In this document: piece after piece, positions 1 through 32,000 of the stretch
How the letters are laid out: each line of letters starts with the position of its first letter
How positions within the stretch are numbered: position 1 is the stretch's first letter
Notes under the pieces: model-generated
Told to the model about the DNA's origin: nothing
The model's database searches: none
What the model saw: only the letters and a program-made list of their open reading frames with translations
Assembly (NCBI RefSeq): GCF_018398935.1
Contig: NZ_CP074694.1
Span: forward strand, 1,890,001-1,922,000
Origin: Telmatocola sphagniphila
GTDB taxonomy: Bacteria; Planctomycetota; Planctomycetia; Gemmatales; Gemmataceae
DNA length: 32,000 nucleotides
Direction of reading: 5' to 3'
Translations under genes and position numbers: made by a program

Positions 1-1
1 G

Positions 2-688
2 CTGGCCGACATCAAGCAGAAGGCCGACCGCGACACGATCGTTTCGCGCTTCCGCGGCCTGCAGCAGGACCTAGATGCCCTCGGCATCCGGCTTCGCCTG
101 CTGGAATGGCTCTACCGCAGCGAGTGGACCGTCCCGGTCGATCCCGAACTGAGCGAAGTCTCCGGGGAAGACGCCGTCCAGGAAACGGCCAAGCTCTTCG
201 CCGGGGTGTTCGCCTCGCGCCGCCTGAATCTCAATGTGGTCAATCAGGGGGGCTGGCTGAGCGTCGATAAGGACACGCTGACCGCGGCCCTGATGGGCCT
301 GCTCAATTTCGCCTGCAAGGCCAGTAGCGGCGATCGCCTGGAAGTCAAAATTGAAAAACTGCCGCCGACGCCGGAACTCACCGAAGGCTGGATGTGCTTC
401 ACCCTCTCGGGCGAATGGCAGCCGACCGTCTGGAACCAGACGGCCAGCATCGACTCCCTGAGCAATGAAGCGCTGATTGCGGACGCGACTTTGGGTCTGG
501 CCGTGGCCAACCGGGTCGCCCGGCGCTTGCAAGGGGTCTGTCGGGCCGAGGAAAGTTCCGATTTCCGCCGCTGCATCAAGCTCTACGTGCCGACCCGACT
601 GCCCAGTCCGATCACGACGGTTTCCGAAAACGAAGTGGGCCCCCGCGAAGAACTCTGTCTGGGCTGGAAGCTCGCCAGCGTTGTCTAA
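2..688 (+). CDS. Histidine-kinase-like ATPase (HATPase_c) protein, C-terminal part; the 5' end lies upstream of the window
   Basis: Frame 2 is open from the window edge (LADIKQKADRDTIVSRFRGLQQDL...) to TAA at 686-688. Track ORF 206..688 is only its GTG-initiated tail. N-box-like LMGLLNFACKASSGD and G2-like DATLGLAVANRVARRL are present. The G1 (DxGxG) position reads TLSGEW, so it is degenerate. Confidence 0.7.
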   Translation: MADIKQKADRDTIVSRFRGLQQDLDALGIRLRLLEWLYRSEWTVPVDPELSEVSGEDAVQETAKLFAGVFASRRLNLNVVNQGGWLSVDKDTLTAALMGLLNFACKASSGDRLEVKIEKLPPTPELTEGWMCFTLSGEWQPTVWNQTASIDSLSNEALIADATLGLAVANRVARRLQGVCRAEESSDFRRCIKLYVPTRLPSPITTVSENEVGPREELCLGWKLASVV

Positions 689-731
689 AGAGCCCCAACT
701 TACGAATGCCATCCCCCTGGAGAATCGATCC

Positions 732-1523
732 ATGAGTGCCGAGTTGAACGCCAGCCTCGATCAGCCGACCGAAGATGCCCTGCAGCTGGTTTGGAAAGAA
801 CAAGCCGATCTCAAAGCCGTCACGCTGTTGCGACGCTCGGGCATCACCGACGGAACGATCCATCGGACCATGTCGGTCGTCCACGGCACGCAGCCGTATA
901 AGCACAACCACTACCACGACGAGGAGTTCTTCCGCGCCGACCCCGCCAAGGGAACCTTGAGTAATCCCTACGGCCAGCGCATGATGCGGGTCTCCGAGGA
1001 TTTCGTGGTGGCCCTGCTGGGGGCTTTGGAAGACGAAGTCGGCCAGGGGGGCGCTCGCGAGATCATGTACAAGTGCGGCTTCCAGTGGGGCCTGCGCGAC
1101 ATGAAGCATTTTCTGCCGCGCATGCAGGCCGAGTTCGAAGCCGAACTGGACCGGCAGCGCATGGACTTCCTGGCGGAGACCTGGTGGTGGCCGTTGACCA
1201 TCACCGGCTGGGGCACCTGGCGCTACGACTTCCGGCAGCGCGATAAGGGCCTGCTCTTCATCGAGCTGTACGAATCGGCGGTCGCCCAGTCGGTCGGCGA
1301 TATCGGCTCGGTGATCTGCTACTTCTACGCCGGCCTGTTCGCTTCGACCTTCAGCGTCTTAAGCAAGCGGTCTCTCGGCTGCGTCGAGATGCAGTGCTAC
1401 GCCACCGGCGAAGACTACTGCAAGTTCGTAATTTCCGACTACAAGAAAGTCGATGCCGCGGCGTTCTGGCGGGGCGAAGGAGCCACCGCGAGCGACATCA
1501 TGAAACGCCTCCAAAACATGTAA
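732..1523 (+). CDS. V4R (4-vinyl-reductase-like) domain protein
   Basis: ATG at 732 is in frame with track ORF 477..1523, whose upstream extension overlaps the preceding CDS and is Arg/Pro-rich junk. It is preceded by GGAGAA. The C-terminal LGCVEMQCYATGEDYCKFVISDY resembles the V4R signature (E..C...G...C.F.I). The GxG-rich middle (YKCGFQWG, TITGWGTW) is typical of the family. Confidence 0.7.
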   Translation: MSAELNASLDQPTEDALQLVWKEQADLKAVTLLRRSGITDGTIHRTMSVVHGTQPYKHNHYHDEEFFRADPAKGTLSNPYGQRMMRVSEDFVVALLGALEDEVGQGGAREIMYKCGFQWGLRDMKHFLPRMQAEFEAELDRQRMDFLAETWWWPLTITGWGTWRYDFRQRDKGLLFIELYESAVAQSVGDIGSVICYFYAGLFASTFSVLSKRSLGCVEMQCYATGEDYCKFVISDYKKVDAAAFWRGEGATASDIMKRLQNM

Positions 1524-1537
1524 TTTCCGGAGAGACC

Positions 1538-2185
1538 ATGCTCGATACATCCCGTTCGCTGCGACTGAAGGGCAATTTTTTCGCTCGTCCGGACTGGTTC
1601 CGCACCGACGTGACCCGGGGCGTGACCCGCAATCCCCTCGGGGAACGGGTCTGCACGCTGACCAGCGACTTTCTGCTCGGCTTTCGCGATGCCATGATCT
1701 ACGAATGCGGCCCGGCCGCTTCGGCCGTTCTGAAATCGGCCGGCAAGCGCTGGGGCGGCCAGTTCGCCCACCGCCTCGATAAGGCGGTCAAGGAATTCTA
1801 CGGCACCCCCTGGCGGGAATTGCAGCGCGGCGTGCAGATCACCGTGCTGACCGAAGCCTTCGCCGCGCACGGCTGGGGCCGGTTGTCGGTCGATTGGGAA
1901 CGCTGGCCCGATTATCTGGGCGTGCGTCTGGAAAACTCGATCTATCCCGATCTGATCCTGCAGGCGGACAAGCCCTCGGACGCGCTGTTCGCCGGCTTTT
2001 TGAAATCGATTTTCGAATATCTGCTGGAAACGCAGCTGGAGTGCCTGCAGACCGATTGCCCCACCTGCGAAGCGACGGCGAGTGGTTTCGTTCTGGGTAC
2101 GCCGGCGGCGATCCAGGACGTGGAAGCGCGGTTTGCGAAAACGTTGGGACGGGAAGGGACGCTGCGCGAAGTGCTCGCGTCCTGA
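1538..2185 (+). CDS. Second, more divergent V4R-like protein
   Basis: ATG at 1538 lies 14 nt after the previous stop and is preceded by GGAGAGA; the track start 1394 overlaps the upstream gene. The layout parallels the first V4R protein (GERVCTLTSDFLLGF..., GWGRLSVDW..., C-terminal LECLQTDCPTCEATASGFVLG), but the terminal motif is degenerate. Confidence 0.6.
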   Translation: MLDTSRSLRLKGNFFARPDWFRTDVTRGVTRNPLGERVCTLTSDFLLGFRDAMIYECGPAASAVLKSAGKRWGGQFAHRLDKAVKEFYGTPWRELQRGVQITVLTEAFAAHGWGRLSVDWERWPDYLGVRLENSIYPDLILQADKPSDALFAGFLKSIFEYLLETQLECLQTDCPTCEATASGFVLGTPAAIQDVEARFAKTLGREGTLREVLAS

Positions 2186-2218
2186 AAGTGAATTGAGAAC
2201 TTAACCTAAGGAATTTCC

Positions 2219-2689
2219 ATGAATCCCTGGCTGATTACTCTCGTCAAGGACGCCAACGAGCGATTGCTGACCGAAAAGGAAGTGGAACGCTTTATTGCCT
2301 TTCTGGACACCCTGCCCGCTCGGATCAAGCTGAGCGAGGACCTGGAAAAGTTCGAGCCGGAAATCCTCGCGGCCCTGACCAAGGAACTGCCGGCGGCCTA
2401 TCCCGACCGACCCGGCTACAGCCGCCTGGTGATTCAGGACGTCGTCGAATCGCTGCGGCACCTGTTCGTTTCGGTCTTCGTGGACGAACCCGAATTCCTG
2501 AAACTGCGCTGGACCGATTCGCTCGTGAGTTCGCTGCGGCAGTCGGGACTGGACGAGGAGTGGGCCGCCGACATTTACAAGGCGATCGACGAGAAACTCA
2601 AAAAGTTGCTGCGCGGCCCGTCGCTGGAACTATACCGGCCGGCCATGGATCAATTGCTCGACAGTCTGGTCGTTTCCGTAGCCGTCTAA
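2219..2689 (+). CDS. Phycobiliprotein-like globin (phycobilisome-protein fold), cysteine-free, paralog A
   Basis: 156 aa, all-helical-looking sequence. The N-terminal DANERLLTEKEVERFIAF, then ...ILAALTKELPAAYPD..., then RLVIQDVVESLRHLF follow the order of phycobiliprotein landmarks (D.qGRyL..tEl; ..yP..; .RD..yyLR) as I remember them. AAGGA Shine-Dalgarno upstream. The protein has zero Cys. Confidence 0.6.
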   Translation: MNPWLITLVKDANERLLTEKEVERFIAFLDTLPARIKLSEDLEKFEPEILAALTKELPAAYPDRPGYSRLVIQDVVESLRHLFVSVFVDEPEFLKLRWTDSLVSSLRQSGLDEEWAADIYKAIDEKLKKLLRGPSLELYRPAMDQLLDSLVVSVAV

Positions 2690-2707
2690 CCCCTTGCGGA
2701 GAATCTC

Positions 2708-3229
2708 ATGCTTCTGTCCGTGATGACCAAACTCGATGGACGTTACCTCAAAAGCCGCGAACGCGCGGACTTAAAGGCCTACATCGGCACCATTCGCAAC
2801 CGCCGCACGGCCTACGATGAAATCCGCCGCAAGGCGCTGCCGGTCGCCGAAGGCGTCATCGCCGAGCAGCGCAAACGCTACCCCGATTTTGCCAAGATCC
2901 GGCCGCAGGGCTTCGAGAAGGGAACCCGGGACATCCACTCCCTGACCAACATCGCCGCCAACATGATGCTGCAGGAAGCGACCGAATTCTACGACAGCAT
3001 GTTCACCGAGTGGTACCGCACGATCCTCAAGGCGGTGCATATGTCGCCGCAATTTTTGCAGGACACCTTCAAGTCCTGGCAGGTCCAGCTCGAAGTGAAT
3101 CTGACCGCCGACACGCACGCCCTGCTGCGGCCGTACGTGCAGCATCTGACCGACTTTCTGTTGAACGTGCCGGTCCCCGTGAAAGATGAAACCGGCCGCC
3201 GCTTGGCCCAGATTCCCGCCTCCGTCTAA
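2708..3229 (+). CDS. Phycobiliprotein-like globin (phycobilisome-protein fold), cysteine-free, paralog B
   Basis: 173 aa. KLDGRYLKSRERADLKAY, VIAEQRKRYPDF, EKGTRDIHSLTNIAANMML and WYRTILKAVHMSPQF line up with phycocyanin/allophycocyanin landmarks (D.qGRyL, ..yP.., KCaRDigyYLR, y..al..lg.p). The canonical bilin-attachment Cys position is Gly (KGTRD). The protein has zero Cys. Confidence 0.7.
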   Translation: MLLSVMTKLDGRYLKSRERADLKAYIGTIRNRRTAYDEIRRKALPVAEGVIAEQRKRYPDFAKIRPQGFEKGTRDIHSLTNIAANMMLQEATEFYDSMFTEWYRTILKAVHMSPQFLQDTFKSWQVQLEVNLTADTHALLRPYVQHLTDFLLNVPVPVKDETGRRLAQIPASV

Positions 3230-3240
3230 GGAACTTTCCC

Positions 3241-3861
3241 ATGAGCTTACTGCACCGCGCCCGCACCGCGTCGGGCGATCTGCACCGCCGCATCGAAAAC
3301 ACGCCGCTGGCCCAGCAGCTGGCCCGCGGCACCGTCGAGCGCGACACCTACCTGCGCCTGCTCGAAGTCCTCCTGCCGATTCACACGGCGGTCGAAGCGC
3401 AACTCGCGCATCCCCCCTTGAACGTTTTGACCAATCCGAATCTGCCGCGGCGAAGCCTATTAATCGCCGACCGGGCCGCGCTGGCCGCGCCCGCCGAGCC
3501 TTTCGAATCGGAGCATCTGTCCGCCTGGCAGGAGGCCCTGCAGGAGGAGGAAGCGGTCTCCCCCTGGGTCTGGGCCGGCGCCCTCTACGTCCTCGAAGGC
3601 TCCCGGATGGGTTCGCGGATGCTGGCCAAAACCGTGGCGGCGGCGCTGCAACTCCCCCTGCAGCCCGGGCTCGGTCTAGACTACCACCTCGCGGGGTTAA
3701 GCGACGGCGGCCAAACCTGGCAGGAATTCAAAGCCTTTTTGGAAAACGCCCCAGTCACGGCGTCGGAGAGCGACAGCTTCGCCCGCGGCGTCGGACGGAC
3801 CTTTCAGGTGATGTTCGACGTCTACGAAGAGCTTTCGGGCGCCACCGCGGCACGATCTTGA
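3241..3861 (+). CDS. Heme oxygenase (biliverdin-producing, BphO/HO1 family)
   Basis: Proximal-His region TASGDLHRRIENTPL (compare T..sH...En). YLRLLEVLLPIHTAVEAQL matches the Y..lL...y..y..lE motif. ALYVLEGSRMGSRML matches the distal-helix YvlEGS.lGG motif. It starts 11 nt after the preceding stop. Confidence 0.8.
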   Translation: MSLLHRARTASGDLHRRIENTPLAQQLARGTVERDTYLRLLEVLLPIHTAVEAQLAHPPLNVLTNPNLPRRSLLIADRAALAAPAEPFESEHLSAWQEALQEEEAVSPWVWAGALYVLEGSRMGSRMLAKTVAAALQLPLQPGLGLDYHLAGLSDGGQTWQEFKAFLENAPVTASESDSFARGVGRTFQVMFDVYEELSGATAARS

Positions 3862-3887
3862 TTCCATGACGGGAAACGGAGAGCGGG

Positions 3888-5507
3888 ATGAAACGGCTGC
3901 ATTTGAAACCCCTCGGCGAAAACCTGCTGGTGGAAACCGGCGCGACTCTCCTGTCCACGCTGCTGAGCCGGCAGATGAACGTCAAAATGTCCTGCGGCGG
4001 CCGCGGCTTCTGTTCGACCTGCCGCGTCTCGATCAAACAGGGGATGGATCAGCTCTCCCCGATCGAGAATCGGGAACGCAAGACCCTCTCGCTGGTCGCC
4101 GGCGTCACCTCCGAATGCCGGCTGGCCTGCCAGTCGCGGGTCGAAGGCGAAGGGATCATCGTCGAAGTTCCCAAAGGGATGTACATCGAGCGGGCCGAGG
4201 ATCTCCTGAGCCTGCTCGGCCAGCGCGCTCCGGAAAATATCCTGCACCCGATCCATGGTTCGATTCTGATTCCCAAGGACAAGATCATCACCCGCAGCCT
4301 GCTCGAACAGTCGCGCACCCTCGAGAAGGAAGTGGAGCGGATGAAGAACCGGGCCGTCGGGGCGGGCGAATCGGACAGCCAGCTGAATTCCTCCTCGATC
4401 TCGAATTTCCGGTTTATGGCCACCGGCAGCGGCCTGGCGCCCAGCCAGGGGCTCGACTCCTTCACCTCGACGTCGATTCTGAATCTGACCACCCGGATGG
4501 ACTTTTCGAAGCACGCTTCGAAAACCGGGAATCCCTCGGCGCCGTCGTTCTCGATGCACTCGAGCGATCAGAAACTGCCGACGATCCATTCCGAAGAATC
4601 GACGCTGCCGCCCTACCTGACCCGCCCCGAACGCAAAGCCGTCGTCCTCGAGCCGGGCGCGACCGTGGGCAAGTTCCTGCTCCTCGAAGAGATCGGTAAA
4701 GGCGGCGTCGGCCTGGTCTATCGGGCCCTGCACACGAAATTGAAATCGATCGTGGCGATGAAGTTCCTGAAACCCAGTTCGCCCGGCGGCACCGGGGCGC
4801 TCCTGGAGCGCTTCGGCAACGAGGCCCGGCTCTTGGCCCAGCTCAATCACCCCAACGTGGTCCGCGTGCTGGACTTCGAAGACAACTCCGCCCTCCCCTA
4901 CGTGGTCATGGAATTCGTCGATGGCAGCAGCGCCTCGGAACTGCTCAAACAGCAGGGGCGGCTGCCGCTGGCCAAGGTCCTGAGCATCCTGTCGCAGGCG
5001 ACCCGCGGGCTGATGGCGGCCTTGCACCTGGGCATCATCCACCGCGACGTCAAGCCGGCCAACATCCTGGTCGACAAGCTGGGGATCGCCAAGCTGGTCG
5101 ATCTGGGCCTGGCCGTGCAGATGCAATCGGACGACGGCACGGAACTGGGCAAGGGCCGCGGCGCCGAAGGGACCGCCGGCTACATGTCGCCCGAGCAGCT
5201 GCAGGACGGTTCCTCGATCGACCACCGCTCGGACATCTACTCGCTGGGGGTCACCTTCTATCACCTCTTGACCGGTCGCCTGCCTTTCACCGGCAGCAAC
5301 CGCAACGAAGTCTTCTTCAAGCACATGACGGCGACGCCGACCGCCCCGCACGAGATTTGCCCGGATATGCCCGTGGAGGTCTCGCAGATCATTCTGAAGA
5401 TGATGGAGAAGCATCCCCTCGATCGGCCGCAAACCTACGAAGAGGTCCTGGCCTTGTGGGACACGGTGGCAGGAAATGCCAAGGAACTGGTGCGCAGCGC
5501 GAAGTGA
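3888..5507 (+). CDS. [2Fe-2S] ferredoxin domain fused to a Hanks-type Ser/Thr protein kinase
   Basis: N-terminus: C36-x5-C42-x2-C45 (SCGGRGFCSTCRV) plus C77/C81 (SECRLAC), a ferredoxin-like 2Fe-2S ligand pattern. A Ser-rich linker follows (~aa 150-250). C-terminal kinase motifs: GKGGVGLVYRA, VAMKFL, HRDVKPANILV, DLGLA, GTAGYMSPEQ. GGAGAG lies upstream of the ATG. Confidence 0.9.
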   Translation: MKRLHLKPLGENLLVETGATLLSTLLSRQMNVKMSCGGRGFCSTCRVSIKQGMDQLSPIENRERKTLSLVAGVTSECRLACQSRVEGEGIIVEVPKGMYIERAEDLLSLLGQRAPENILHPIHGSILIPKDKIITRSLLEQSRTLEKEVERMKNRAVGAGESDSQLNSSSISNFRFMATGSGLAPSQGLDSFTSTSILNLTTRMDFSKHASKTGNPSAPSFSMHSSDQKLPTIHSEESTLPPYLTRPERKAVVLEPGATVGKFLLLEEIGKGGVGLVYRALHTKLKSIVAMKFLKPSSPGGTGALLERFGNEARLLAQLNHPNVVRVLDFEDNSALPYVVMEFVDGSSASELLKQQGRLPLAKVLSILSQATRGLMAALHLGIIHRDVKPANILVDKLGIAKLVDLGLAVQMQSDDGTELGKGRGAEGTAGYMSPEQLQDGSSIDHRSDIYSLGVTFYHLLTGRLPFTGSNRNEVFFKHMTATPTAPHEICPDMPVEVSQIILKMMEKHPLDRPQTYEEVLALWDTVAGNAKELVRSAK

Positions 5508-5708
5508 GCGGTGGGCCGGGCGAGAATCGAAAGAAACCACGGGGGAAACGAGGCGTCGTCGCGAAACGAGGGGCACCGGCGGGAGAACAGCCGGTCGACG
5601 AGCTGAAGAGGTGAGATAGAAGAACGGAGTTAGGTCATTTCAAGCGATTTCTATAGCCCTTTCCTTACTGGGGAAGCCGTTCGAGTCGCCTTAAAGACAA
5701 AACCTGAT

Positions 5709-6884
5709 TCAAGATGTGGGACCGACGGCGCGGCCGGAGACGGAGAGGCGTTTTCCGATCAGCGCCCGTCGAATGCGCGGGGTATGGCGTTCGCAGAGAT
5801 ACCAGAAGGCCGCGCCGATCCCCAGCAACAGGCTCAAAAATCCCAGGTACTGCAGAACCGCCGGGAGATCGGGAAAACACTTCTGCGGCAGATAGAAGTG
5901 CGTGGCGATCAGAAGCACGACCGGGAAGTGAATGGTGTAAAGCGAGTAGGACAGGTCGGCGGCGGCGATGGCGATTTTCTCAAGTGCCGGTCCCAGAATC
6001 GGTATGCGCGGCCGCGGCCATTTGGCCAGGACCAGACAAAGTGTGGCGAAGGCCAGCCCGACGACCAGATCGCTCGAGACGCCCAGTCCTTCCTGCAGCC
6101 GCAGCGATTTGCTGTAGCCCAGGGACGCTCCAAAAAGCCCCAGCGTGACGAGGAGCGCAATCCAGCGGCGACGCGTCGAGAAGCGCGGCTGGATCCGGTA
6201 AACCAGAACGCCCAGTAACCAGATCAGATAGCCCAGCCAGATGCCCCGCGGCAACCCATAGGCTAACGCCGCGATCGCGCCCCCCGCGAGCAGGCGCCGC
6301 CCGAGGCCCGCCGGTTTCCCGGAAATTCCGAGCAGCAATGTGCCGAGCGGAAAGAGCACGTAGTACCAGAACTCGTTGGCCAGACTCCAGAGCGGGCTAT
6401 TGGTTCCGAAGGTCGGCACCCCGATCGTCTGGACGAAGCCGAGATTCCCCAGGAAGGTGACCAGACTCGTCGAGTAGGACCCGTCGGTTCGGGGTCCGGA
6501 GGTCCAGAGCGGGGCGTATTCACCCTGGGCCACCTCGGGATGCGCCGAGAGCGTGTACGAATCGATCAGGTAGGTCAGGACCAGCGCCGGGAGAAGCACC
6601 CCCCAGAGCCGGGTCAGCCGCGTGGTGCCATAGGCCGCCCAGGAGAAGCGGTCCCCCGCTTTGAGCACCGAGCCGCCGACGAACATGCCGCTGAGGACGA
6701 AGAAGACCATCACCGCTTCGTGGCCGAGCCCGGTGAGGCCGTAGAGCAATTTTTGGAAGAGCGTCGGGGCGGTCAATTCGGCGTAGTCGACCAGCGCCAC
6801 CGCCCGCAGGTGCCCGGCGCAGACCAGAATGGCACTGAGCCCCCGGACCAGATCCAGCCAGATATAGCGCTCGTCCTGTTTCAT
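5709..6884 (-). CDS. Membrane acyltransferase, family 3 (O-acyltransferase of polysaccharide)
   Basis: Multi-TM protein with the N-terminal MKQDERYIWLDLVRGLSAILVCAGHL signature of Acyl_transf_3. ATG at 6884 is preferred. The track start 6989 adds an Arg-rich 35 aa extension and remains possible. Confidence 0.75.
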   Translation of the reverse strand: MKQDERYIWLDLVRGLSAILVCAGHLRAVALVDYAELTAPTLFQKLLYGLTGLGHEAVMVFFVLSGMFVGGSVLKAGDRFSWAAYGTTRLTRLWGVLLPALVLTYLIDSYTLSAHPEVAQGEYAPLWTSGPRTDGSYSTSLVTFLGNLGFVQTIGVPTFGTNSPLWSLANEFWYYVLFPLGTLLLGISGKPAGLGRRLLAGGAIAALAYGLPRGIWLGYLIWLLGVLVYRIQPRFSTRRRWIALLVTLGLFGASLGYSKSLRLQEGLGVSSDLVVGLAFATLCLVLAKWPRPRIPILGPALEKIAIAAADLSYSLYTIHFPVVLLIATHFYLPQKCFPDLPAVLQYLGFLSLLLGIGAAFWYLCERHTPRIRRALIGKRLSVSGRAVGPTS

Positions 6885-23462: not shown

Positions 23463-24521
23463 ATGAATCCAACCAGTACCCACCGGCCAGGCGAGCCGCT
23501 GATCCAAGTCACCGAATCGGGTCTCTTCTGCGAACGGGGAGCCTTTTACATCGATCCGTGGCGTCCGGTGGATCGGGCCATTATCACGCATGCCCATTCC
23601 GACCACGCGCGGCGCGGCTGCGGCCGCTACCTGACCACGACGGCGGGCCGACGGGTGCTCCAAAGCCGGATGGAGCCGAACGCGGTGATCCAGACCGTCA
23701 ACTACGGAGAAGTTCTCCACCAAAATGGCGTTCAGGTTTCGCTCCACTCCGCCGGCCATGTGCTGGGCTCCGCGCAGATTCGCGTCGAGTACCGCGGCGA
23801 AGTCTGGGGAATCTCCGGGGACTACAAGCTGGCCCCCGATCCGACCTGCACGGCCTTCGAACCGGTCCGCTGTCATACCTTCGTCACCGAATCGACTTTT
23901 GGCCTGCCGATTTATCGCTGGGAAAGCCCGGCGACGATCTTTGCTTCGGTCAATTCCTGGTGGCAGCAGAATCGTACGCTGGGCCGGGCCTCGATTATCT
24001 ACGCCTATTCGCTGGGCAAAGCGCAACGGCTCCTCGCCGGACTGGATACCTCGATCGGACCGATCTTTTGTCACGGCGCCGTCAAGACCGTCAATCAGGA
24101 TTACCGGGACAGCGGGATTCCCCTGCCGCCCACCCAAAAGGCGGAAGCGAAACGGAAAGCGACGGAATGGCAGGGAGCCCTGATTATCGCTCCCCCTTCG
24201 GCGATGGGGACGCCCTGGGTCCGCAAATTCGGCGACGCTTCGGAAGCCTACGCCTCCGGTTGGATGGCCGTACGCGGCACCCGCCGGCGCCGCGGCGTCG
24301 ATCGCGGTTTCGTCCTTTCCGACCACGCCGATTGGCCGGGACTGCTTTCCGCCATCGCCGCCACCGGCGCGGAAACCATTCTGGCGACGCATGGGTCGAC
24401 CGCCGTGCTGGTGCGCTGGCTGCGCGAGCAAGGACTCCAGGCGCAGCCGTTACGCACCGAATATCAGGGCGAGAGTGAGGAAGCTGCCGCCGTCGCCCCC
24501 GCGGAAGGGGCCTCCGAATGA
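23463..24521 (+). CDS. Ligase-associated DNA damage response exonuclease (metallo-beta-lactamase fold)
   Basis: IITHAHSDHARRG (HxHxDH), HSAGHVLGSAQI, FVTESTFG, LSDHADW. It is the first gene of the four-gene ligase-associated set. Confidence 0.85.
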   Translation: MNPTSTHRPGEPLIQVTESGLFCERGAFYIDPWRPVDRAIITHAHSDHARRGCGRYLTTTAGRRVLQSRMEPNAVIQTVNYGEVLHQNGVQVSLHSAGHVLGSAQIRVEYRGEVWGISGDYKLAPDPTCTAFEPVRCHTFVTESTFGLPIYRWESPATIFASVNSWWQQNRTLGRASIIYAYSLGKAQRLLAGLDTSIGPIFCHGAVKTVNQDYRDSGIPLPPTQKAEAKRKATEWQGALIIAPPSAMGTPWVRKFGDASEAYASGWMAVRGTRRRRGVDRGFVLSDHADWPGLLSAIAATGAETILATHGSTAVLVRWLREQGLQAQPLRTEYQGESEEAAAVAPAEGASE

Positions 24522-26119
24522 GAGCCTTCGCCGAGCTTTTTCGCCACCTGGATGAAACCACCCAGTCTCTGGCCAAAATCGCGGCCCTGAAGAACTATTT
24601 CTCGAACTGTGCGCCGAGCGATGGCGCCTGGGCCGTGCATTTTCTGTCGGGTCGGAAGTTGCCCCGGGTCGTTCCGGTGCGGCTGCTCCGTCAGGCCTGT
24701 CGGGAAAGCACCGGTCTGCCCGAGTGGATCTTCGACGAATGCTACGATTCGGTTGGCGATCTCTCCGAGACAATCGCCCTGCTGCTGCCAGTTCAGGACA
24801 CGCACTCGTCCGGAAGCCTGGCCGATTGGGTCGAAAATACCCTTCGCCCGCTGGCGAAACTGGGAGAGGCCGAGCGAACCGCGCAGTTGCGCGCCGCCTG
24901 GCAGCAGCTCTCCCGCTCCGAAGTCTTCGTCTTCAACAAACTGGTCACCGGTGGCTTTCGCGTCGGCGTTTCGCAAGGCCTCGTTGTCAAGGCACTGGCC
25001 CAAGTCGCGGACCTTCCGCCGGCGACGATCACGCATCGCTTGATGGGTTCGTGGGAACCAACGGCGGAATTTTTCACGCAGTTGCTCGCCCCCGAATCGG
25101 CCCAGGCGGCGCGGAGCCATCCCTACCCCTTCTGTTTGGCCAATCCCCTGACGCAACCGGTCGCTTCCCTCGGGCCGATTTCCGACTGGAAGATTGAGTG
25201 GAAATGGGACGGCCTCCGGGCGCAGCTTATTCGGCGCCAGGGACAGACCTTCCTTTGGTCGCGCGGCGAGGAATTGATGACCGAGCGGTTCCCCGAGTTG
25301 ACCGAGGTCGCTCCCCGGCTACCGGAGGGGACCGTCCTCGATGGGGAAATCGTCGGCTGGAAGAATGCCCGGGTGCTCCCCTTCACCTCCTTACAAAAAC
25401 GGATTGGCCGCAAAAAACTCAGTCCGAAAATCCTCGCGGAAGTCCCGGTGCGATTTCTCGCGTTTGACTTGCTGGAGACCTCGGGCGTTGATTGCCGAAC
25501 TCGGCCGCTATTCGAACGGGAAGAAATCCTCGAGCACATTCTGGTCGATCTACCGGAGCAGACGACGATCACGCGGCCGCCGCAACTACTTCCTCGTTCC
25601 TGGGAAGAAGCTGCCCAAATTCGCGAGACTAGCCGCGACCAGCAAGCGGAAGGACTGATGCTGAAGCGACGGGATTCCGAATACGGCGTCGGCCGACCGG
25701 TCGGCAGCTGGTGGAAGTGGAAAGTCGCTCCCTTCACCTGCGAGGCGGTCCTGATCTACGCCCAGAAAGGGCATGGCCGGCGGGCCAGCTTGTATACCGA
25801 TTACACCTTCGCGGTTTGGGACCAGGGCCAACTGGTGCCGATCGCCAAGGCCTACTCCGGGTTGACCGACGCGGAGATCGTCGAGGTCGATCGCTTCATT
25901 CGCCAGAATACCCTCGAACGCTTCGGCCCGATCCGCTCGGTGAAACCGGAACTGGTCTTCGAACTCGCCTTCGAAAACATCCAGCTTTCCTCGCGGCACA
26001 AATCGGGCCTGGCCGTCCGCTTTCCCCGCATGCTGCGCTGGCGGCTCGATAAAACTCCCGCCGAGGCCGATACGCTCGAAGCGATTCAGAAAATCTTAGC
26101 AGGGCTTCCGACCTCATGA
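24518..26119 (+). CDS. ATP-dependent DNA ligase (ligase-associated damage response family)
   Basis: Adenylation motif I KIEWKWDGLRAQL (KxDG), LDGEIVG, AEGLMLKRRDSEYGVGRPVGSWWKWK, and an OB-fold C-terminus. ATGA overlap with the upstream gene. Confidence 0.9.
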   Translation: MRAFAELFRHLDETTQSLAKIAALKNYFSNCAPSDGAWAVHFLSGRKLPRVVPVRLLRQACRESTGLPEWIFDECYDSVGDLSETIALLLPVQDTHSSGSLADWVENTLRPLAKLGEAERTAQLRAAWQQLSRSEVFVFNKLVTGGFRVGVSQGLVVKALAQVADLPPATITHRLMGSWEPTAEFFTQLLAPESAQAARSHPYPFCLANPLTQPVASLGPISDWKIEWKWDGLRAQLIRRQGQTFLWSRGEELMTERFPELTEVAPRLPEGTVLDGEIVGWKNARVLPFTSLQKRIGRKKLSPKILAEVPVRFLAFDLLETSGVDCRTRPLFEREEILEHILVDLPEQTTITRPPQLLPRSWEEAAQIRETSRDQQAEGLMLKRRDSEYGVGRPVGSWWKWKVAPFTCEAVLIYAQKGHGRRASLYTDYTFAVWDQGQLVPIAKAYSGLTDAEIVEVDRFIRQNTLERFGPIRSVKPELVFELAFENIQLSSRHKSGLAVRFPRMLRWRLDKTPAEADTLEAIQKILAGLPTS

Positions 26120-28665
26120 AGCCTCGAAAGCTCCCAACTCCCGTTCTGGTTGATCTGCCGAAACCGCTCACGGCGGCCGAGCGCCTCGAGCACTGGTTCG
26201 AAGCGCAAGGCTGGACGCCGTTCGAATTTCAACGGAACACCTGGGCCGCCTACTTCCGCGGGGAATCGGGTCTGATTCATGCCACCACCGGGACTGGGAA
26301 GACCTACGCCCTCTGGCTGGCCGCGGTGCTGGAAGGATTGGCGGAACGGCCGGCGCCGCTTCCGGAGCAAGAAAGAAAACCCAATCGGTCGCGTTCGGAA
26401 GCCGAGCCGCTGCGGGTGCTTTGGATCACGCCGCTGCGGGCCCTCGCCGCCGATACCGCGCAGGCCCTGCAGTTCCCCCTCGAGGATCTGCCACTGCCCT
26501 GGACCATCGAAACGCGGACGGGGGATACCGCCAGCTCGGTGAAGCTGCGCCAGAAAAGTCGCCTCCCCACCGCCCTGATTACCACCCCGGAAAGTCTGAC
26601 GCTGCTGCTGACCCGGCCGACGGCCCCGAGCGATTTTGCCGGGGTCCGACTGGTGGTGGTCGACGAATGGCACGAGTTGATCGCCACCAAGCGGGGTGTC
26701 CAAACCGAACTGGCCCTGGCGCGCCTGCGAAAGTGGGCCCCATCGCTGCGAACCTGGGGCCTCTCGGCCACCTTGGGGAATTTACCGGAAGCGCGGGATG
26801 TGCTGCTTGGGAATCGATCGACCGAATCCGCCCCAATCCGGCTGATCGAAGGTCAGGAGAAGAAGTCGATCCAAATCGATTCGATTCTTCCGCCCGATAT
26901 CGAACGCTTCCCCTGGGCGGGGCATCTGGGCCTGAAACTGCTGCCCGAAGTCTTATGGCAAGTCGAAGCGGCGGCCAGTTCTTTAATCTTCACCAATACC
27001 CGCTCCCAGACCGAACTCTGGTACCAGGCGATTCTAAAAGAACGTCCCGGCTGGGCCGGCCAGATCGCTTTGCATCATGGCTCGCTCGAGACCAAAACGC
27101 GGCGCTGGGTCGAAAAGGCCCTGCGGGCGGGAACGCTCAAATGCGTCGTCTGCACCTCCACGCTCGATCTGGGCGTCGATTTCAGCCCGGTCGAACGGGT
27201 CTTTCAAGTGGGCAGCCCCAAAGGAGTCGCCCGCCTGTTGCAACGAGCCGGTCGCAGCGGGCATTCCCCGAACCGGGAAAGCCGCGTCACCGGGGTGCCG
27301 ACCCACGCCTGGGAGTTGATCGAATTTGCCGCCGCCCGCGACGCGATCGCTTCGCGATTTTTGGAGTCCCGGCCACCCTTGAAAAATCCGATCGATGTCT
27401 TGGCCCAGCATGCCGTAACCATGGCGGTCGGCGGCGGCTTTACGGCCGATTCGCTGTTGGAAGAAATTCAAAGCACGGCTTCCTACGCGAGCTTAACCGA
27501 GGAGGATTGGCGCTGGGTCCTCGATTTTGTGACCACCGGGGGCCCTTCCCTCCGCGCGTATCCCGACTATCAAAAGGTGCATCGCGGCGAGGACGGTCAG
27601 TATCGAGTCGATAACCCGCGGATCGCCCGCCATCATCTGATGGCGATCGGGACAATTGTCAGCGAAGCGCACCTGCAGGTGCAATTTCTGCGCGGGCCGA
27701 AGCTCGGCAGCGTCGAGGAAGCGTTTGCCGCCAGGTTAAAACCGGGGGATCGGTTTGTCTTCGCCGGTCGCCTCGTCCAAATGGTCAAGATTCAGGACGC
27801 CCGCCTCTGGGTGAAGGCGGCGAAAGCGGAGGGCACGATCACGGTGCCGCGCTGGATGGGGGGCTGGATGCCGCTCTCCACGGAGTTGGCTTCTGCCGCG
27901 CGCCGAAAACTGGATCAGGCCGCGCAGGGGATTTTCGATTCGGCCGAAATGCGGGCGGTCCAGCCGCTCTTGGAACTGCAGCAGGAGTGGTCGCAGATTC
28001 CTCGATTGGGCGAATTTCTCGTGGAGAAGACCGTGTCCCGGGAGGGGTATCATTACTACTTCTACCCCTTCGCCGGCCGCTTGGTGCACGAAGGCTTGGC
28101 CGCCCTGTTCGCCTACCGGCTGTCGCGTCGGAAACCGCTGACCTTCAGTATGGCAGTGAACGACTACGGCTTGGAACTCCTCTGTGCTTCGGAGGCCCCG
28201 GTTTTTGAAAGCCTGTCGGAGGGGCTGTTGGCCAGCGACGGAATCTCCGAGGAGATCCGGGACTGCATCAACGCCACCGAGATGAGCAAACGGCAGTTTC
28301 GGGAGGTGGCCCATATCGCGGGCTTGGTCTTTGGCGGCTATCCGGGGCAGCGGAAAACCGCCCGGCAGTTGCAGGCTTCGACCGGATTGATTTACGAAGT
28401 GTTTCGGAACTACGAGCCGGAGAATCGCTTACTGAAGCAGGCTCAGGAAGAGGTGTTGGAGCGGCAGTTGGAACAAACGCGACTGATCGACACTTTGAAG
28501 GTATTACAGAAGAGCCGACTGGTTTTTCAGGAGATACCCCGCTTCACGCCTTTTTGTTTTCCGCTGATGGTTGAACGGCTCCGGGAAAGAGTCTCGTCGG
28601 AGAAGCTCGCGGATCGTGTGAAACGCCTGCAAGAGGCCCTGGAAAGATCGGCCCGGAAGATATGA
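26116..28665 (+). CDS. Ligase-associated DEXH-box helicase (Lhr-like)
   Basis: Motif I HATTGTGKTYA, motif II VVVDEWHEL, SATLGN, HHGSL, TSTLDLGVD, QRAGRSGH. ATGA overlap at 26116-26119. Confidence 0.9.
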   Translation: MKPRKLPTPVLVDLPKPLTAAERLEHWFEAQGWTPFEFQRNTWAAYFRGESGLIHATTGTGKTYALWLAAVLEGLAERPAPLPEQERKPNRSRSEAEPLRVLWITPLRALAADTAQALQFPLEDLPLPWTIETRTGDTASSVKLRQKSRLPTALITTPESLTLLLTRPTAPSDFAGVRLVVVDEWHELIATKRGVQTELALARLRKWAPSLRTWGLSATLGNLPEARDVLLGNRSTESAPIRLIEGQEKKSIQIDSILPPDIERFPWAGHLGLKLLPEVLWQVEAAASSLIFTNTRSQTELWYQAILKERPGWAGQIALHHGSLETKTRRWVEKALRAGTLKCVVCTSTLDLGVDFSPVERVFQVGSPKGVARLLQRAGRSGHSPNRESRVTGVPTHAWELIEFAAARDAIASRFLESRPPLKNPIDVLAQHAVTMAVGGGFTADSLLEEIQSTASYASLTEEDWRWVLDFVTTGGPSLRAYPDYQKVHRGEDGQYRVDNPRIARHHLMAIGTIVSEAHLQVQFLRGPKLGSVEEAFAARLKPGDRFVFAGRLVQMVKIQDARLWVKAAKAEGTITVPRWMGGWMPLSTELASAARRKLDQAAQGIFDSAEMRAVQPLLELQQEWSQIPRLGEFLVEKTVSREGYHYYFYPFAGRLVHEGLAALFAYRLSRRKPLTFSMAVNDYGLELLCASEAPVFESLSEGLLASDGISEEIRDCINATEMSKRQFREVAHIAGLVFGGYPGQRKTARQLQASTGLIYEVFRNYEPENRLLKQAQEEVLERQLEQTRLIDTLKVLQKSRLVFQEIPRFTPFCFPLMVERLRERVSSEKLADRVKRLQEALERSARKI

Positions 28666-29327
28666 AATCCCAGTTTTTGAATACAAATTGTCCGATCACT
28701 TGGGGAGGCCAGGAACTCTGGCTGTTGCCGGAGCGGGCGGTCTATTGGCCCGCGGAAAAAGCCCTGCTGGTCGCCGATATCCACTTCGGCAAAGAGGCCA
28801 GCTTCCGGGCGTCGCAGATTCCGATCCCCGATGGCACGGGCCGGGAACTGCAGCGGCTCTCGCAACTGATTCGCACTCTGGAGTGCCAGGAGCTGATCAT
28901 TTTGGGAGATTTACTGCATTCCCGACGGGGCCGGTCCGCGCACTGGATCGATCAAATCTCGCAGTGGCGCTACCAGTGGAATTCGCTGAAATGGACGCTG
29001 ATTAAGGGCAATCATGATCAAGGAGCCGGAGAACTGCCGAGCGAATGGAAGATTTCGGAGCTGGAGGCCCCGGCGCTTCGAGCCGGACTACTCTTAAGGC
29101 ACATTCCGTTAGAACAGGAAACCGAATTTGCTCTGGCGGGACACTTGCATCCCAAGGTGAAGCTTCGTCACGGTCCCGATCAACTTCGCCTGCCCTGCTT
29201 TCTGGAGCGGGGAAAGACGCTGATTCTGCCGGCGTTTGGGACCTTTGTGGATCATGGGCTGATTGAGTTACAGGAGTCGGATAAGGCCTATTTGGTGGCG
29301 GGGGAAGAAGTGGTGGGGCTAGCGTAA
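28662..29327 (+). CDS. pdeM: Ligase-associated metallophosphoesterase PdeM
   Basis: LLVADIHFGKE, ILGDLLHS, IKGNHD, AGHLHP calcineurin-like motifs. ATGA overlap at 28662-28665. It is the fourth member of the conserved operon. Confidence 0.85.
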   Translation: MKSQFLNTNCPITWGGQELWLLPERAVYWPAEKALLVADIHFGKEASFRASQIPIPDGTGRELQRLSQLIRTLECQELIILGDLLHSRRGRSAHWIDQISQWRYQWNSLKWTLIKGNHDQGAGELPSEWKISELEAPALRAGLLLRHIPLEQETEFALAGHLHPKVKLRHGPDQLRLPCFLERGKTLILPAFGTFVDHGLIELQESDKAYLVAGEEVVGLA

Positions 29328-29361
29328 TTTTAAAAAAAATGCACTTTAAGAAATCGGACTA

Positions 29362-29376
29362 CTCCTCTTCACCTTG
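29362..29376 (+). repeat. IS630-family left terminal inverted repeat
   Basis: CTCCTCTTCACCTTG. Similarity to the right end continues more weakly for about 12 more nt. Confidence 0.65.
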
Positions 29377-29472
29377 ATATAGTCGTTGCAAAATCTGCAC
29401 ATTCTCTAGTAGAAATTGCAATTTTGGGATAGTTTTCAATCCATTTGATTGCAGTGTTGTTGCGGCCATATC

Positions 29473-30021
29473 ATGGTCATGACAACCCAACACACACCCT
29501 CCCTGGTTAAGAAAATCCACGATCGCAACGAGCAGGAAAATCGACGCCGTCTGGGAGTTCAACTGGTTCTCGAAGGCCACACCATTCAGAAGGTGGCCAA
29601 GATGATCAAGATCAATTCCCGCAGCTTGGATAATTGGCTCGCCTGGCACAGAGCTCGTGGGGAAGAGGGGCTCAAAGCCGACAAGCATCCCGGTCCGAAA
29701 TCGAAAATGACCCAAGAGCAAATCCAGGAAGTCCGCTCTTGGTTGCTTCGCGATGCTCGAGAGTTCGGCTTTCGAACCAACCTCTGGACTTCCCGGCGAA
29801 TCGTGCAATTGATCAAAGAAAAATTCCAGATTCAATACAACGCAAACTACTTCTGCCGTTGGTTACGCAAACAGGGCTTCTCCCCGCAGATGCCCGGGAA
29901 AAAAGCGGCCCAACGCAATGAGCAGAAGATCGCCGACTGGACGCAAACCGAATGGCCCCGAATTTCAAAACAGGGGGGCAGGATCGGGCGTATGTCGTAT
30001 TCCTCGATGAAACCGGATTAA
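29473..30021 (+). CDS. IS630 transposase, N-terminal part (HTH / winged-helix DNA-binding), frame 1
   Basis: LVLEGHTIQKVAKMIKINSRSLDNWLAWHRARGEEGL, and a second HTH-like region LWTSRRIVQLIKEKFQIQYNANYFCRWLRKQGFS. ATG at 29473 is preferred to the TTG at 29449. The frame ends shortly after the G6 run at 29973-29978. Confidence 0.75.
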   Translation: MVMTTQHTPSLVKKIHDRNEQENRRRLGVQLVLEGHTIQKVAKMIKINSRSLDNWLAWHRARGEEGLKADKHPGPKSKMTQEQIQEVRSWLLRDAREFGFRTNLWTSRRIVQLIKEKFQIQYNANYFCRWLRKQGFSPQMPGKKAAQRNEQKIADWTQTEWPRISKQGGRIGRMSYSSMKPD

Positions 30022-30548
30022 GTCTGGCTCCTCTGCTACGTCGCACTTGGGCTAAGGTCGGTTCCCGCCCCTTTCTCACGCAAAAAGTAGGTGCTCGCCA
30101 GAAGGTTTCCATTATTGGAGCCTTGTCTTTTTCTCCCCAAAAACACCAGCCTAATCTCTTTTTCCAAACTTTGCCCAACGGCACTTTCAATTCCGAGAAA
30201 GTGGCTAGCTTCTTACGCGATCTCCTCAAACATCTACGCGGTCGGGTCATTGTCGTTTGGGATAATGGTCCCATGCACAAAGGAGAAGCCATGAGAAAAT
30301 TACTCAAAGAATATCCTCGTTTGTCGCTCGAATGGCTGCCGCCCTACGCTCCGGAACTCAATCCCGTCGAGCAGCTCTGGAGCCACCTCAAATACGGGCA
30401 TTGTGCTAATCTCATTCCCGAGGATTTACAAGAACTCGAAGACGAGGCGGTCGAATTTTTAACGGAAGTAAAATTCCAACCAGATATACTACACTCCTAC
30501 TTGAACGAAACTCCTCTACAGAAATCCATCACGGCTGTTGCAGGGTGA
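29952..30548 (+). CDS. IS630 transposase, C-terminal DDE catalytic part, frame 0 (reached by a -1 shift or one-base indel)
   Basis: DDE triad context: VVFLDETG, VVWDNGPMHK, LPPYAPELNPVEQLWSHLK. The reading frame joins orfA at CAG GGG GGC (G_GGG_GGC). Confidence 0.75.
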   Translation: MAPNFKTGGQDRAYVVFLDETGLSLAPLLRRTWAKVGSRPFLTQKVGARQKVSIIGALSFSPQKHQPNLFFQTLPNGTFNSEKVASFLRDLLKHLRGRVIVVWDNGPMHKGEAMRKLLKEYPRLSLEWLPPYAPELNPVEQLWSHLKYGHCANLIPEDLQELEDEAVEFLTEVKFQPDILHSYLNETPLQKSITAVAG

Positions 30549-30555
30549 GGAGGAG
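30541..30555 (-). repeat. IS630-family right terminal inverted repeat
   Basis: The reverse complement reads CTCCTCCTCACCCTG, matching the left end at 13/15 positions. Confidence 0.65.
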
Positions 30556-30630
30556 TAGAAGGGAAAAGAAGTTCAAGCAATTTCGGAGAACGGAAATAAG
30601 ATAGAAGTACGTATTACGACTAATGCTACA

Positions 30631-31746: not shown

Positions 31747-31846
31747 ACGATATTCCACTATTCGCACAAATAGAGATTAGTTATTAGATTCGCTTATACT
31801 CGCGAGGAATCCACGTATGCGTTTAGGCATGAACTCGATTTGATAT

Positions 31847-31862
31847 TTTGACAATCGTCAAA
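31847..31862. promoter_or_regulatory. Perfect 6-4-6 palindrome upstream of the AT-rich acyltransferase gene (possible operator)
   Basis: TTTGAC-AATC-GTCAAA, about 100 nt upstream of the ATG at 31746. It contains the TTGACA/TTGACG hexamers. Confidence 0.2.
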
Positions 31863-32000
31863 TCCACACTTATTTAGTATGCCGGCCATTCTGAAGCGCT
31901 CCATATTTAAATCTACTCCCTCCCAGGTGGCAAAATTCGTCGTAAATTATTCAAAAGATGCAAAATCGACTGCTATTTTGCAACTACAGCTACGAATTTA

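Follow-up and report, generated by a model that had tools for sequence, protein, structure and literature searches.

What use does a chemoorganotrophic planctomycete have for a heme oxygenase (HO) whose gene is packed together with those for two phycobiliprotein-like globins, two V4R-domain proteins and a ferredoxin fused to a serine/threonine kinase (STK)? The question is raised by an operon at positions 1-5507 of a 32-kb stretch of the genome of Telmatocola sphagniphila (hereafter the window), a cultured organism of the Planctomycetota, order Gemmatales, family Gemmataceae, with a genome of 6.59 Mb; the second globin of the operon, globin B, is 100% identical to KIH39_07595 of this species. 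The Gemmataceae are aerobic chemoorganotrophs without photosystems (PMC7397252). A first-pass annotation, made from the DNA alone, had proposed that the operon makes a bilin, presents it to a non-covalent globin pair and signals through histidine (His) and serine/threonine (Ser/Thr) kinases, and had regarded this combination of genes as one not known to have been characterized. The latter claim does not hold for the core of the operon, as HO, an Fe-S protein, two V4R proteins of two clades and one or two globins constitute the pre-PcyA clusters already described in heterotrophs, including Planctomycetes (Rockwell, Martin and Lagarias 2023, PMC10151467). The globins of these clusters, named bilin biosynthesis-associated globins (BBAGs), are paralogues or sisters of the phycobiliproteins (PMC10151467), and the link to them that had been drawn in that annotation is correct.

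Thus, clusters of HO, globin and V4R genes in heterotrophs are already published, and what is added here is the kinase connection. As far as the sequences tell, the novelty lies in a conserved Gemmataceae variant that combines the lack of a ferredoxin-dependent bilin reductase (FDBR), paired xQD and xRD globins, a PAS membrane protein resembling a degenerate histidine kinase (HK) and a ferredoxin-kinase fusion. Our best reading, in which confidence and doubt are evenly balanced, is that the operon would encode a biliverdin-making and biliverdin-binding module coupled to redox-gated Ser/Thr signaling, and that it may represent, a judgment poised just as evenly, an FDBR-less, kinase-wired derivative of the BBAG/V4R/Fe-S/HO cluster family.

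Gene organization and conservation of the operon

Seven co-directional genes on the plus strand make up window 1-5507, with intergenic gaps, in gene order, of 43, 14, 33, 18, 11 and 26 nt, and with GGAG or AAGGA placed 6-10 nt ahead of the ATG in all six complete genes. The gene order, strand, gaps of 11-43 nt and Shine-Dalgarno-like sites reported in the first-pass annotation are therefore all borne out, the last in the six complete genes, and the V4R, Heme_oxygenase, Fer2 and Pkinase domains that it had assigned are clear in Pfam and NCBIfam searches. The genes are as follows:

2..688, plus strand: C-terminal 228 codons of an HK-like PAS protein (PAS by Pfam; the orthologue in locus L002 has PAS and HATPase_c)
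732..1523, plus strand: V4R-A, 263 aa (Pfam V4R 2.8e-15, XylR_N 3e-4)
1538..2185, plus strand: V4R-B, 215 aa, a divergent V4R paralogue (Pfam V4R 1.8e-3, under the curated cut-off)
2219..2689, plus strand: globin A, 156 aa, an xQD-type BBAG paralogue (Pfam Phycobilisome 21.7 bits, full length)
2708..3229, plus strand: globin B, 173 aa, an xRD-type BBAG (Pfam Phycobilisome 22.5 bits, full length)
3241..3861, plus strand: HO, 206 aa, of the canonical family (Heme_oxygenase PF01126, 8.4e-18)
3888..5507, plus strand: ferredoxin-STK fusion, 539 aa (Fer2 7.8e-8, fdx_isc 5e-15, Pkinase 3.7e-49; Pfam and NCBIfam)

The sequence upstream of the window was taken from Logan contig L085, whose overlap with the window is identical; window position 1 corresponds to L085 position 9270, and the contig reaches 9.27 kb upstream of the window start. 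The first gene of the operon (L085 8344..9957) has its start 926 nt ahead of the window, and its full product has 537 aa. As about 480 nt of non-coding DNA precede this gene, the operon in Telmatocola consists of exactly seven genes. A 584-aa open reading frame (ORF) on the minus strand (3822..5576) lies opposite the well-supported kinase gene, and we regard it as a spurious antisense frame that the high G+C content produces.

The comparative set comprises 80 loci from species-representative genomes (designated by L and a number), fetched with the V4R-A alignment and with no cyanobacterial locus among them. They were annotated with our own hidden Markov models (HMMs), one for each cluster component and one for FDBR. 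The clusters fall into four types (optional genes in parentheses):

Type I, Gemmataceae: (STK), HK-like protein, (ferredoxin), V4R-A, V4R-B, globin, globin, HO, ferredoxin-STK fusion
Type II, Gemmataceae and Isosphaeraceae: STK, (FDBR), HO, (ferredoxin-STK fusion), ferredoxin, V4R-A, one or more globins, V4R-B, STK
Type III, Pirellulales: FDBR, HO, V4R-A, low-complexity protein, globin, V4R-B, tandem-globin fusion
Type IV, Myxococcota, Sumerlaeota, Blastocatellia and Sericytochromatia: ferredoxin, V4R-A, globin, V4R-B, STK, with FDBR and HO nearby

Type I is complete in L002, L006, L007, L009, L011, L012 and L059 as well as in the window, and partial in six more loci; Telmatocola displays its most reduced version, without the upstream STK and the standalone ferredoxin. 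Conservation of the gene neighborhood, which had been suggested as a check on the operon, was indeed found: the Type I order is seen again, with protein identities of just 35-75%, in no fewer than eight distinct genomes or metagenome-assembled genomes (MAGs), and hence the arrangement is not due to chance.

The ferredoxin-kinase fusion

The product of the last gene consists of a [2Fe-2S] ferredoxin with a C-terminal extension (aa 1-~156), a linker (aa 160-258) in which Ser and Thr account for 29% of the residues, and a Hanks-type kinase domain (aa ~262-530) with all its motifs intact (GKGG270, AMK290, HRD385, DLG405 and SPE434). The N-terminal 156 aa align from end to end with the standalone ferredoxin of the L002 cluster (157 aa; 44% identity), and Cys36, Cys42, Cys45 and Cys81 (C-x5-C-x2-C-x35-C) together with the extension of about 60 residues are conserved in 68 modules. 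Given this end-to-end alignment and the conservation of the four cysteines and the extension, the fused part is the cluster's own Fe-S protein. A search with the 160-aa Fe-S module against 1.84 billion representative proteins recovered just 21 matches at E<=1e-30, and proteins with the ferredoxin-kinase fusion are rare. The 16 closest relatives all exceed the length of a standalone ferredoxin and bear the module at their N-terminus, and 14 of these 16 are 484-637 aa long. In Pfam scans, seven of eight proteins taken from the closest 16 combined Fer2 with Pkinase and one combined Fer2 with PP2C, and the tally for all ten relatives scanned, these eight included, was eight with Fer2 and Pkinase, one with Fer2 and a PP2C phosphatase and one with WD40 repeats. 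The non-kinase partners of the module are the PP2C domain in P0146 (637 aa) and the WD40 repeats in P0157 (758 aa). That one sensory-type module is found fused to a kinase and also to a phosphatase is what we would regard as the signature of a regulatory input domain.

The fusion is present in 9 of the 14 Type I loci, including all the complete ones, and in 6 of the 22 Type II loci. Further, an STK gene lies within 500 nt downstream of V4R-B in 14/17 Type II and 14/17 Type IV loci (28/34 together), and in 0/16 Type III loci. Thus, the coupling to a Ser/Thr kinase, as claimed in the first-pass annotation, is strongly supported by both conservation and domain fusions. By sequence, the fused kinase falls together with the kinase encoded upstream in the Type II clusters (46-51% identity). 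We also considered whether the kinases that follow V4R-B form one orthologous family across phyla, which their identity of ~33% does not support; the kinase association may be of ancient origin with later divergence, or may go back to repeated acquisition.

Heme oxygenase and the absence of a bilin reductase

The best match of the HO in the PDB is 5kzl (3.4e-9), in which the proximal His is aligned with His15 of the Telmatocola protein, and conservation in 62 cluster HOs extends to His15, Glu19 and the distal-helix residues Gly120 and Gly124. By these residues and the Heme_oxygenase match the catalytic motifs are intact and the protein is assigned to the canonical HO-1/HmuO/BphO type. It is well established that ferredoxins can reduce the HOs of bacteria, cyanobacteria and plants.

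The FDBR HMM was seeded on the Pfam-verified Fe_bilin_red protein of L038 and built from 35-44 cluster FDBRs. At E<=50 and with filters off, it returned only noise in the 14 Type I loci (flanks up to 10 kb), the 32-kb window and the 9.27 kb upstream of it, in keeping with the earlier remark that no FDBR was in view. FDBR genes were scored in 0/14 Type I, 11/22 Type II, 23/23 Type III and 10/23 Type IV loci, and thus in 44 loci of the other types. One candidate, a 338-aa ORF upstream of the operon (L085 5963..6979), had an HMM E-value of 0.25 and was rejected by profile-profile comparison (probability 0.1%). Since HO is present and no reductase is found nearby, a bilin bound by the products of this operon would most simply be biliverdin. 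Additionally, Type I and Type II clusters coexist in single MAGs, and for this reason Type I appears to be a paralogous copy that underwent rearrangement and loss of the reductase. In the MAG that also contains L005, a second Type I copy (L014) lacks HO and the standalone ferredoxin and retains the HK-like protein, V4R-A, V4R-B, the two globins and the ferredoxin-STK fusion. Given this copy without HO, the enzyme either can be supplied in trans or is dispensable there.

The globin pair

A profile of nine globin A orthologues matches allophycocyanin beta over its full length (E 6.6e-9), and the AlphaFold model of globin B (pLDDT 79) gave 50 listed Foldseek matches that are all phycocyanin or allophycocyanin chains (TM 0.59-0.66). 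The two globins are mutually homologous (hhalign probability 97%). The proposal that they adopt the phycobiliprotein-type globin fold thus holds up, by profile for globin A and by predicted structure for globin B, though their Pfam scores of 21.7 and 22.5 bits are borderline with respect to the Phycobilisome cut-off of 22.2 bits.

Neither globin has a single Cys, and at the position of the CxRD chromophore motif globin A has VIQD and globin B has GTRD. Over the respective classes the motif takes the form (V/F/L)xQD in globin A and (G/A/T/I)xRD in globin B, with Arg74 and Asp75 invariant in the latter and the motif Asp invariant in both. Because there are no cysteines in either protein, any bilin would be held without a covalent link, as had been proposed from the DNA. 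None of the Type I or Type II globins possesses a Cys at the CxRD position. We considered whether a Cys there tracks the presence of FDBR and rejected the idea, as the Type II and core Type III globins lack this Cys even beside an FDBR gene. The fixed adjacency of the xQD and xRD globin genes resembles that of an alpha/beta pair. In a neighbor-joining tree globin B is sister to the core globins of the Type II and Type III planctomycete clusters, and globin A falls in a clade of its own, close to the "second" globins of other clusters; globin identity between loci is about 20-50%. A role for the globins as heme sensors was also rejected, as no invariant His is available for heme ligation in their orthologues, neither His81 in globin A nor His111 in globin B being conserved.

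The last gene of the Pirellulales clusters encodes a fusion protein with two or three globin domains of the phycobiliprotein-like kind (L038 13600-15981, with equivalents in L031-L051; Phycobilisome 3.9e-18), which contains one GHQD-type and one CKRD-type domain and looks like a covalently linked alpha/beta-like BBAG.

The V4R proteins and the PAS membrane protein

V4R-A is the most conserved protein of the cluster family, with identities of 53-84% across Gemmatales, Isosphaerales and Pirellulales and 54 positions with conservation of 93% or more across 82 loci, among them HN.Y, WWWPL and Cys196/Glu219/Cys222/Cys230. Weak matches in the PDB to the sensor domains of CapR, PoxR and MopR (E 0.1-0.4) align the Cys motif, and its spacing, Cys-x23-Glu-x2-Cys-x7-Cys, is the one that we take to be that of the MopR/PoxR zinc site. 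V4R-B is 25% identical to V4R-A over 183 aa and forms a separate HMM class that is present in every cluster type; just 13 of its positions are at least 93% conserved and the Cys motif is not among them. The presence of two differing V4R proteins, as in the pre-PcyA clusters, is thus seen here as two classes separated by HMMs, A and B being our own classes rather than ones formally mapped on the published clades.

The full 537-aa product of the first gene has a hydrophobic, transmembrane N-terminus and a single PAS domain (Pfam 9.7e-6). The upstream sequence had been suggested as the place to look for a PAS-GAF-PHY region on the truncated kinase; the transmembrane segment and PAS domain are found instead, and Pfam detects neither GAF nor PHY in the full protein. 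HATPase_c and HisKA are likewise missed by Pfam in both the Telmatocola fragment and the full protein. The gene is homologous to those of PAS-HATPase_c proteins in related loci, such as the L002 orthologue with PAS and HATPase_c (1.4e-7, Pfam) and without HisKA. Hence, the homology behind the earlier label of "HK-like ATPase" stands, but the ATPase domain itself is not matched in the Telmatocola protein. In an alignment of 13 orthologues, 1) the region resembling the dimerization and histidine phosphotransfer domain lacks an invariant His and any recognizable H-box; 2) the N-box Asn is not conserved; 3) both the N and the G1 box are degenerate, above all in Telmatocola, where the G1 box reads LSGEW as against DAGPP in the orthologues; and 4) a C-terminal EEL..GW.L motif is conserved. 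No response-regulator receiver domain was found among the domain matches for the operon genes or the L085 and L002 neighbors. With no H-box, degenerate ATP-binding motifs and no response regulator identified, the His-kinase output claimed in the first-pass annotation is doubtful, and we regard the protein as an HK-like, probably non-canonical, PAS protein.

A model for the operon and its alternatives

In the pathway that we envisage, HO would cleave heme to biliverdin IXalpha with O2 and with electrons from the [2Fe-2S] module, a module that would serve as donor in Telmatocola solely in the form of the N-terminus of the Ser/Thr kinase. Biliverdin would be the end product because no bilin reductase is found in the sequence examined. 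The alpha/beta-like, Cys-free pair of globin A (xQD) and globin B (xRD), conceivably as a heterodimer, would bind it non-covalently as ligand, and the V4R-A/V4R-B pair, like the small-ligand domains of the XylR/DmpR type, may handle the hydrophobic tetrapyrrole, either heme on its way in or the bilin on its way out. The Fe-S module would also gate the fused kinase, or it may be controlled by the kinase, or both. Ser/Thr phosphorylation, including that of the linker or the ferredoxin module, could then report or control redox, O2 or heme status along with bilin production. The PAS membrane protein would provide an accessory input and is probably non-catalytic. A sensory role of the operon is what we infer from these elements together.

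Several observations weigh against this model. 1) The absence of FDBR holds for the window and the 9.27 kb upstream of it, not for the rest of the 6.59-Mb genome, and Type I and Type II clusters do share MAGs (L006 with L023, L059 with L025 and L009 with L027). 2) The paralogous Type I locus L014 has no HO beside its other genes. 3) One BBAG-1 that has been tested was poorly chromophorylated, and BBAG holoproteins are photoinert with a fluorescence yield of 3-7% (PMC10151467). 4) The AlphaFold model of V4R-A, from a 14-sequence alignment, has a pLDDT of 42 and is unusable. 5) Identity among the kinases encoded after V4R-B, and between them and the fused kinase, is ~33%, which is the background level for the family. 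6) No transcription factor was identified in the operon, just as no response regulator was. Nevertheless, each of the three alternatives considered below is harder to reconcile with the kinase and phosphatase fusions or with the gene context than the model of a biliverdin module wired to a Ser/Thr kinase.

An alternative that we hold to be unlikely is that the V4R pair, the globins and the ferredoxin chaperone heme- or bilin-type cofactors or deliver them to client proteins in a tetrapyrrole handling or assembly process that the kinases merely regulate. The homologous cyanobacterial cluster has been implicated in the assembly, stabilization and repair of photosystems II and I (PSII and PSI; PMC10151467, PMC13326532), but the Gemmataceae have no photosystems, no client protein is encoded near the operon, and the downstream genes vary between loci. 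V4R is the BchJ-type domain inferred to bind chlorophyll precursors (PMC13326532), and the far stronger conservation of V4R-A than of the globins (53-84% versus about 20-50%) would suggest that the V4R protein and not the globin is the functional core; however, the fusion of the Fe-S module to a kinase or a PP2C domain is typical of a signaling input and not of a chaperone.

It appears rather improbable that the operon mediates a light response, with the biliverdin-loaded globin pair acting as a photoreceptor or photoprotective pigment that is read by the kinases, i.e. as a non-phytochrome sensor. An HO gene beside that of a sensor kinase is the classical bphO-bphP pattern, but the HK-like protein in this case looks catalytically degenerate, and the operon codes for no GAF, PHY or B12-binding domain. 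The globins do belong to the bilin-binding phycobiliprotein/photoglobin superfamily, the xQD of globin A has the same Gln-Asp as the CXQD motif of photoglobins, and these globin-B12 fusions have been named as homologous to the chromophore-binding domains of photocobilins (PMC10151467, PMC13446030); against this, all BBAG holoproteins tested so far are photoinert, with the low fluorescence yield mentioned above (PMC10151467).

Finally, heme-iron acquisition or heme detoxification, in which HO frees iron and the globins sequester heme or a toxic bilin, would be compatible with a canonical HO with its catalytic residues, an operon-encoded ferredoxin-type reductant and, without FDBR, nothing to process biliverdin further, but it is highly improbable as there is no heme-uptake gene among the five downstream genes or the annotated upstream genes (ECF sigma factor, WD40 and HTH proteins), HO is dispensable in the paralogous locus L014, the globins lack an invariant His for heme ligation, and it leaves unexplained why the genes are so tightly linked to V4R proteins and kinases across phyla.

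Lineage-specific additions to the clusters

In Type II clusters a small ORF lies between V4R-A and the globin (L016 10980-11369, L019 10778-11167, L017 10636-11217, L020 10801-11205 and L024 10758-11252). It contains two or three VNWxN repeats and a C-terminal F-x-W-D/E motif, and it is absent from the gaps between V4R-A and V4R-B in Type I. The same position between V4R-A and the globin is occupied in Pirellulales by a 489-aa protein made up mostly of (AAEPV)n repeats (L038 10688-12157), with weakly similar counterparts at the equivalent place in other loci, and in a sericytochromatian locus by a 249-aa ORF (L084 9772-10521) with no Pfam match and no relative in the other fetched loci; an FDBR-like ORF is found 6 kb from the latter on the opposite strand. 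Seven loci (L005, L009, L014, L026, L027, L052 and L060) come from MAGs titled "uncultured Alcaligenaceae bacterium", and their V4R-A proteins are 56-75% identical to those of Gemmataceae; these labels are probably wrong.

Genomic surroundings

Upstream of the operon, L085 contains an HTH protein and the following unrelated genes:

a 75-aa ORF
5963..6979 of L085: the 338-aa ORF considered above, of no family
an ECF sigma factor and a WD40 protein, on the opposite strand

The five genes downstream of the operon encode an acyltransferase, a sugar epimerase/dehydratase, an acetyltransferase and two glycosyltransferases. They belong to a long run of minus-strand ORFs (window 5709-~22000) that converges on the end of the operon and resembles a polysaccharide or O-antigen biosynthesis cluster; the six genes annotated in it are Acyl_transf_3, a GDP-mannose-dehydratase-type epimerase, a hexapeptide acetyltransferase, GT2, GT4 and a Polysacc_synt flippase. 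Further along, on the plus strand (24518-29327), overlapping genes for an ATP-dependent DNA ligase (533 aa), an Lhr-type helicase (849 aa) and a metallophosphoesterase (221 aa) form a DNA-repair trio. From 29000 to 32000 the G+C content falls from about 0.60 to 0.42-0.51; this segment carries a DDE_3 transposase (29952-30548) and a second Acyl_transf_3 gene (30631-31767, minus strand), and is probably horizontally acquired. In the part of the window ORFs that was scanned, no lyase, linker or photosynthesis gene was recognized among the annotated neighbors of the operon, in agreement with the earlier remark that photosynthesis and linker genes are missing nearby. Rfam detects no RNA family in L085 5000-15200, and a simple scan of window 5300-5800 found no promoter-like or intrinsic-terminator-like site.

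Comparison with known systems

The light-harvesting phycobiliproteins share with the Telmatocola globins the fold, the arrangement as two adjacent paralogous subunit genes and the motif Asp, which is kept in both globins and preceded by Arg in globin B. They differ in that the Telmatocola proteins have no Cys for thioether attachment and are just 10-19% identical to them, and in that the host is a chemoorganotroph with no lyase, linker or photosynthesis gene recognized among the annotated neighbors. Natural homologues of phycobiliproteins that contain no Cys and presumably bind biliverdin could be of interest for near-infrared protein scaffolds. The two domains of V4R-A, XylR_N and V4R, are those that make up the sensor domains of XylR, DmpR, MopR, PoxR and CapR; unlike those regulators, it is a standalone protein without an AAA+ or DNA-binding domain, and its matches in the PDB are marginal. 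The bphO-bphP operons likewise join an HO gene to a co-transcribed gene of the sensor-kinase kind in a non-phototroph, with biliverdin as the presumed end product, whereas in Telmatocola there are no GAF or PHY domains, the candidate bilin binders are globins, the HK-like protein is degenerate and the credible output is a Hanks-type kinase.

The closest relationship is with the pre-PcyA clusters (pre-1 and pre-3), with which Type I shares HO, an Fe-S protein, two differing V4R proteins, one or two globins and a non-photosynthetic host. These clusters were found in 2023 as the evolutionary source of PcyA, with globins that are sisters of the phycobiliproteins. Several BBAGs bind bilins and BBAG-2 shows specificity for biliverdin, but the functions of BBAGs are stated to be unknown in heterotrophs and cyanobacteria alike (PMC10151467); the follow-up by Frascogna et al. 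(2026) deals with the enzymology of the reductases (PMC13446030). Type I departs from the pre-PcyA pattern in several respects: 1) FDBR is missing (0/14). 2) V4R-A is followed by V4R-B and then by two globins, both without the CxRD cysteine. 3) The Fe-S protein is fused to a Ser/Thr kinase, which is its sole form in Telmatocola. 4) A PAS/HK-like membrane protein has been added. Kinases are not discussed in either study of the family, the word occurring only in a reference title in one (PMC10151467) and not at all in the other (PMC13446030). The variant in Telmatocola is a minimal, seven-gene version from a cultured, fully sequenced organism, with HO, a globin pair, a V4R pair and one ferredoxin-kinase polypeptide, and it suggests a regulatory role for a cluster family of so far unknown function; the fusion in particular provides a concrete and testable hypothesis, namely that the Fe-S protein is the regulatory partner of a Ser/Thr kinase.

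In cyanobacteria the slr0144-slr0149 cluster descends from pre-PcyA clusters (PMC10151467). The slr0144-slr0152 genes of Synechocystis sp. PCC 6803 (V4R proteins Slr0144 and Slr0147, ferredoxin Fd5 Slr0148, BBAG Slr0149 and kinase SpkG Slr0152) resemble the Telmatocola operon in combining two V4R proteins, an Fe-S protein, a globin and, as the last gene, a Ser/Thr kinase, both without FDBR; the Synechocystis operon differs in lacking HO, in the extra genes slr0150 and slr0151, and in its phototrophic host and tie to photosystem assembly. In Synechocystis, with spkG as the last gene of the operon, phosphorylation of Fd5 is lost in the spkG mutant (PMC11863333). As ferredoxin and kinase are a single polypeptide in Telmatocola, the fusion supports a functional link between Fd5 and SpkG, as a parallel to the literature, and it ties this puzzling phosphorylation to a cross-phylum gene association that published cluster analyses had set aside. 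We tentatively suggest, with low confidence, that the whole BBAG/V4R/Fe-S family, slr0144-slr0152 included, might be a Ser/Thr phospho-signaling device in which the [2Fe-2S] protein would be both a redox or O2 sensor and a kinase substrate, and the globin and V4R proteins would read heme or bilin status. If so, the phycobiliprotein lineage would have begun as a signaling component of heterotrophs and not as an antenna.

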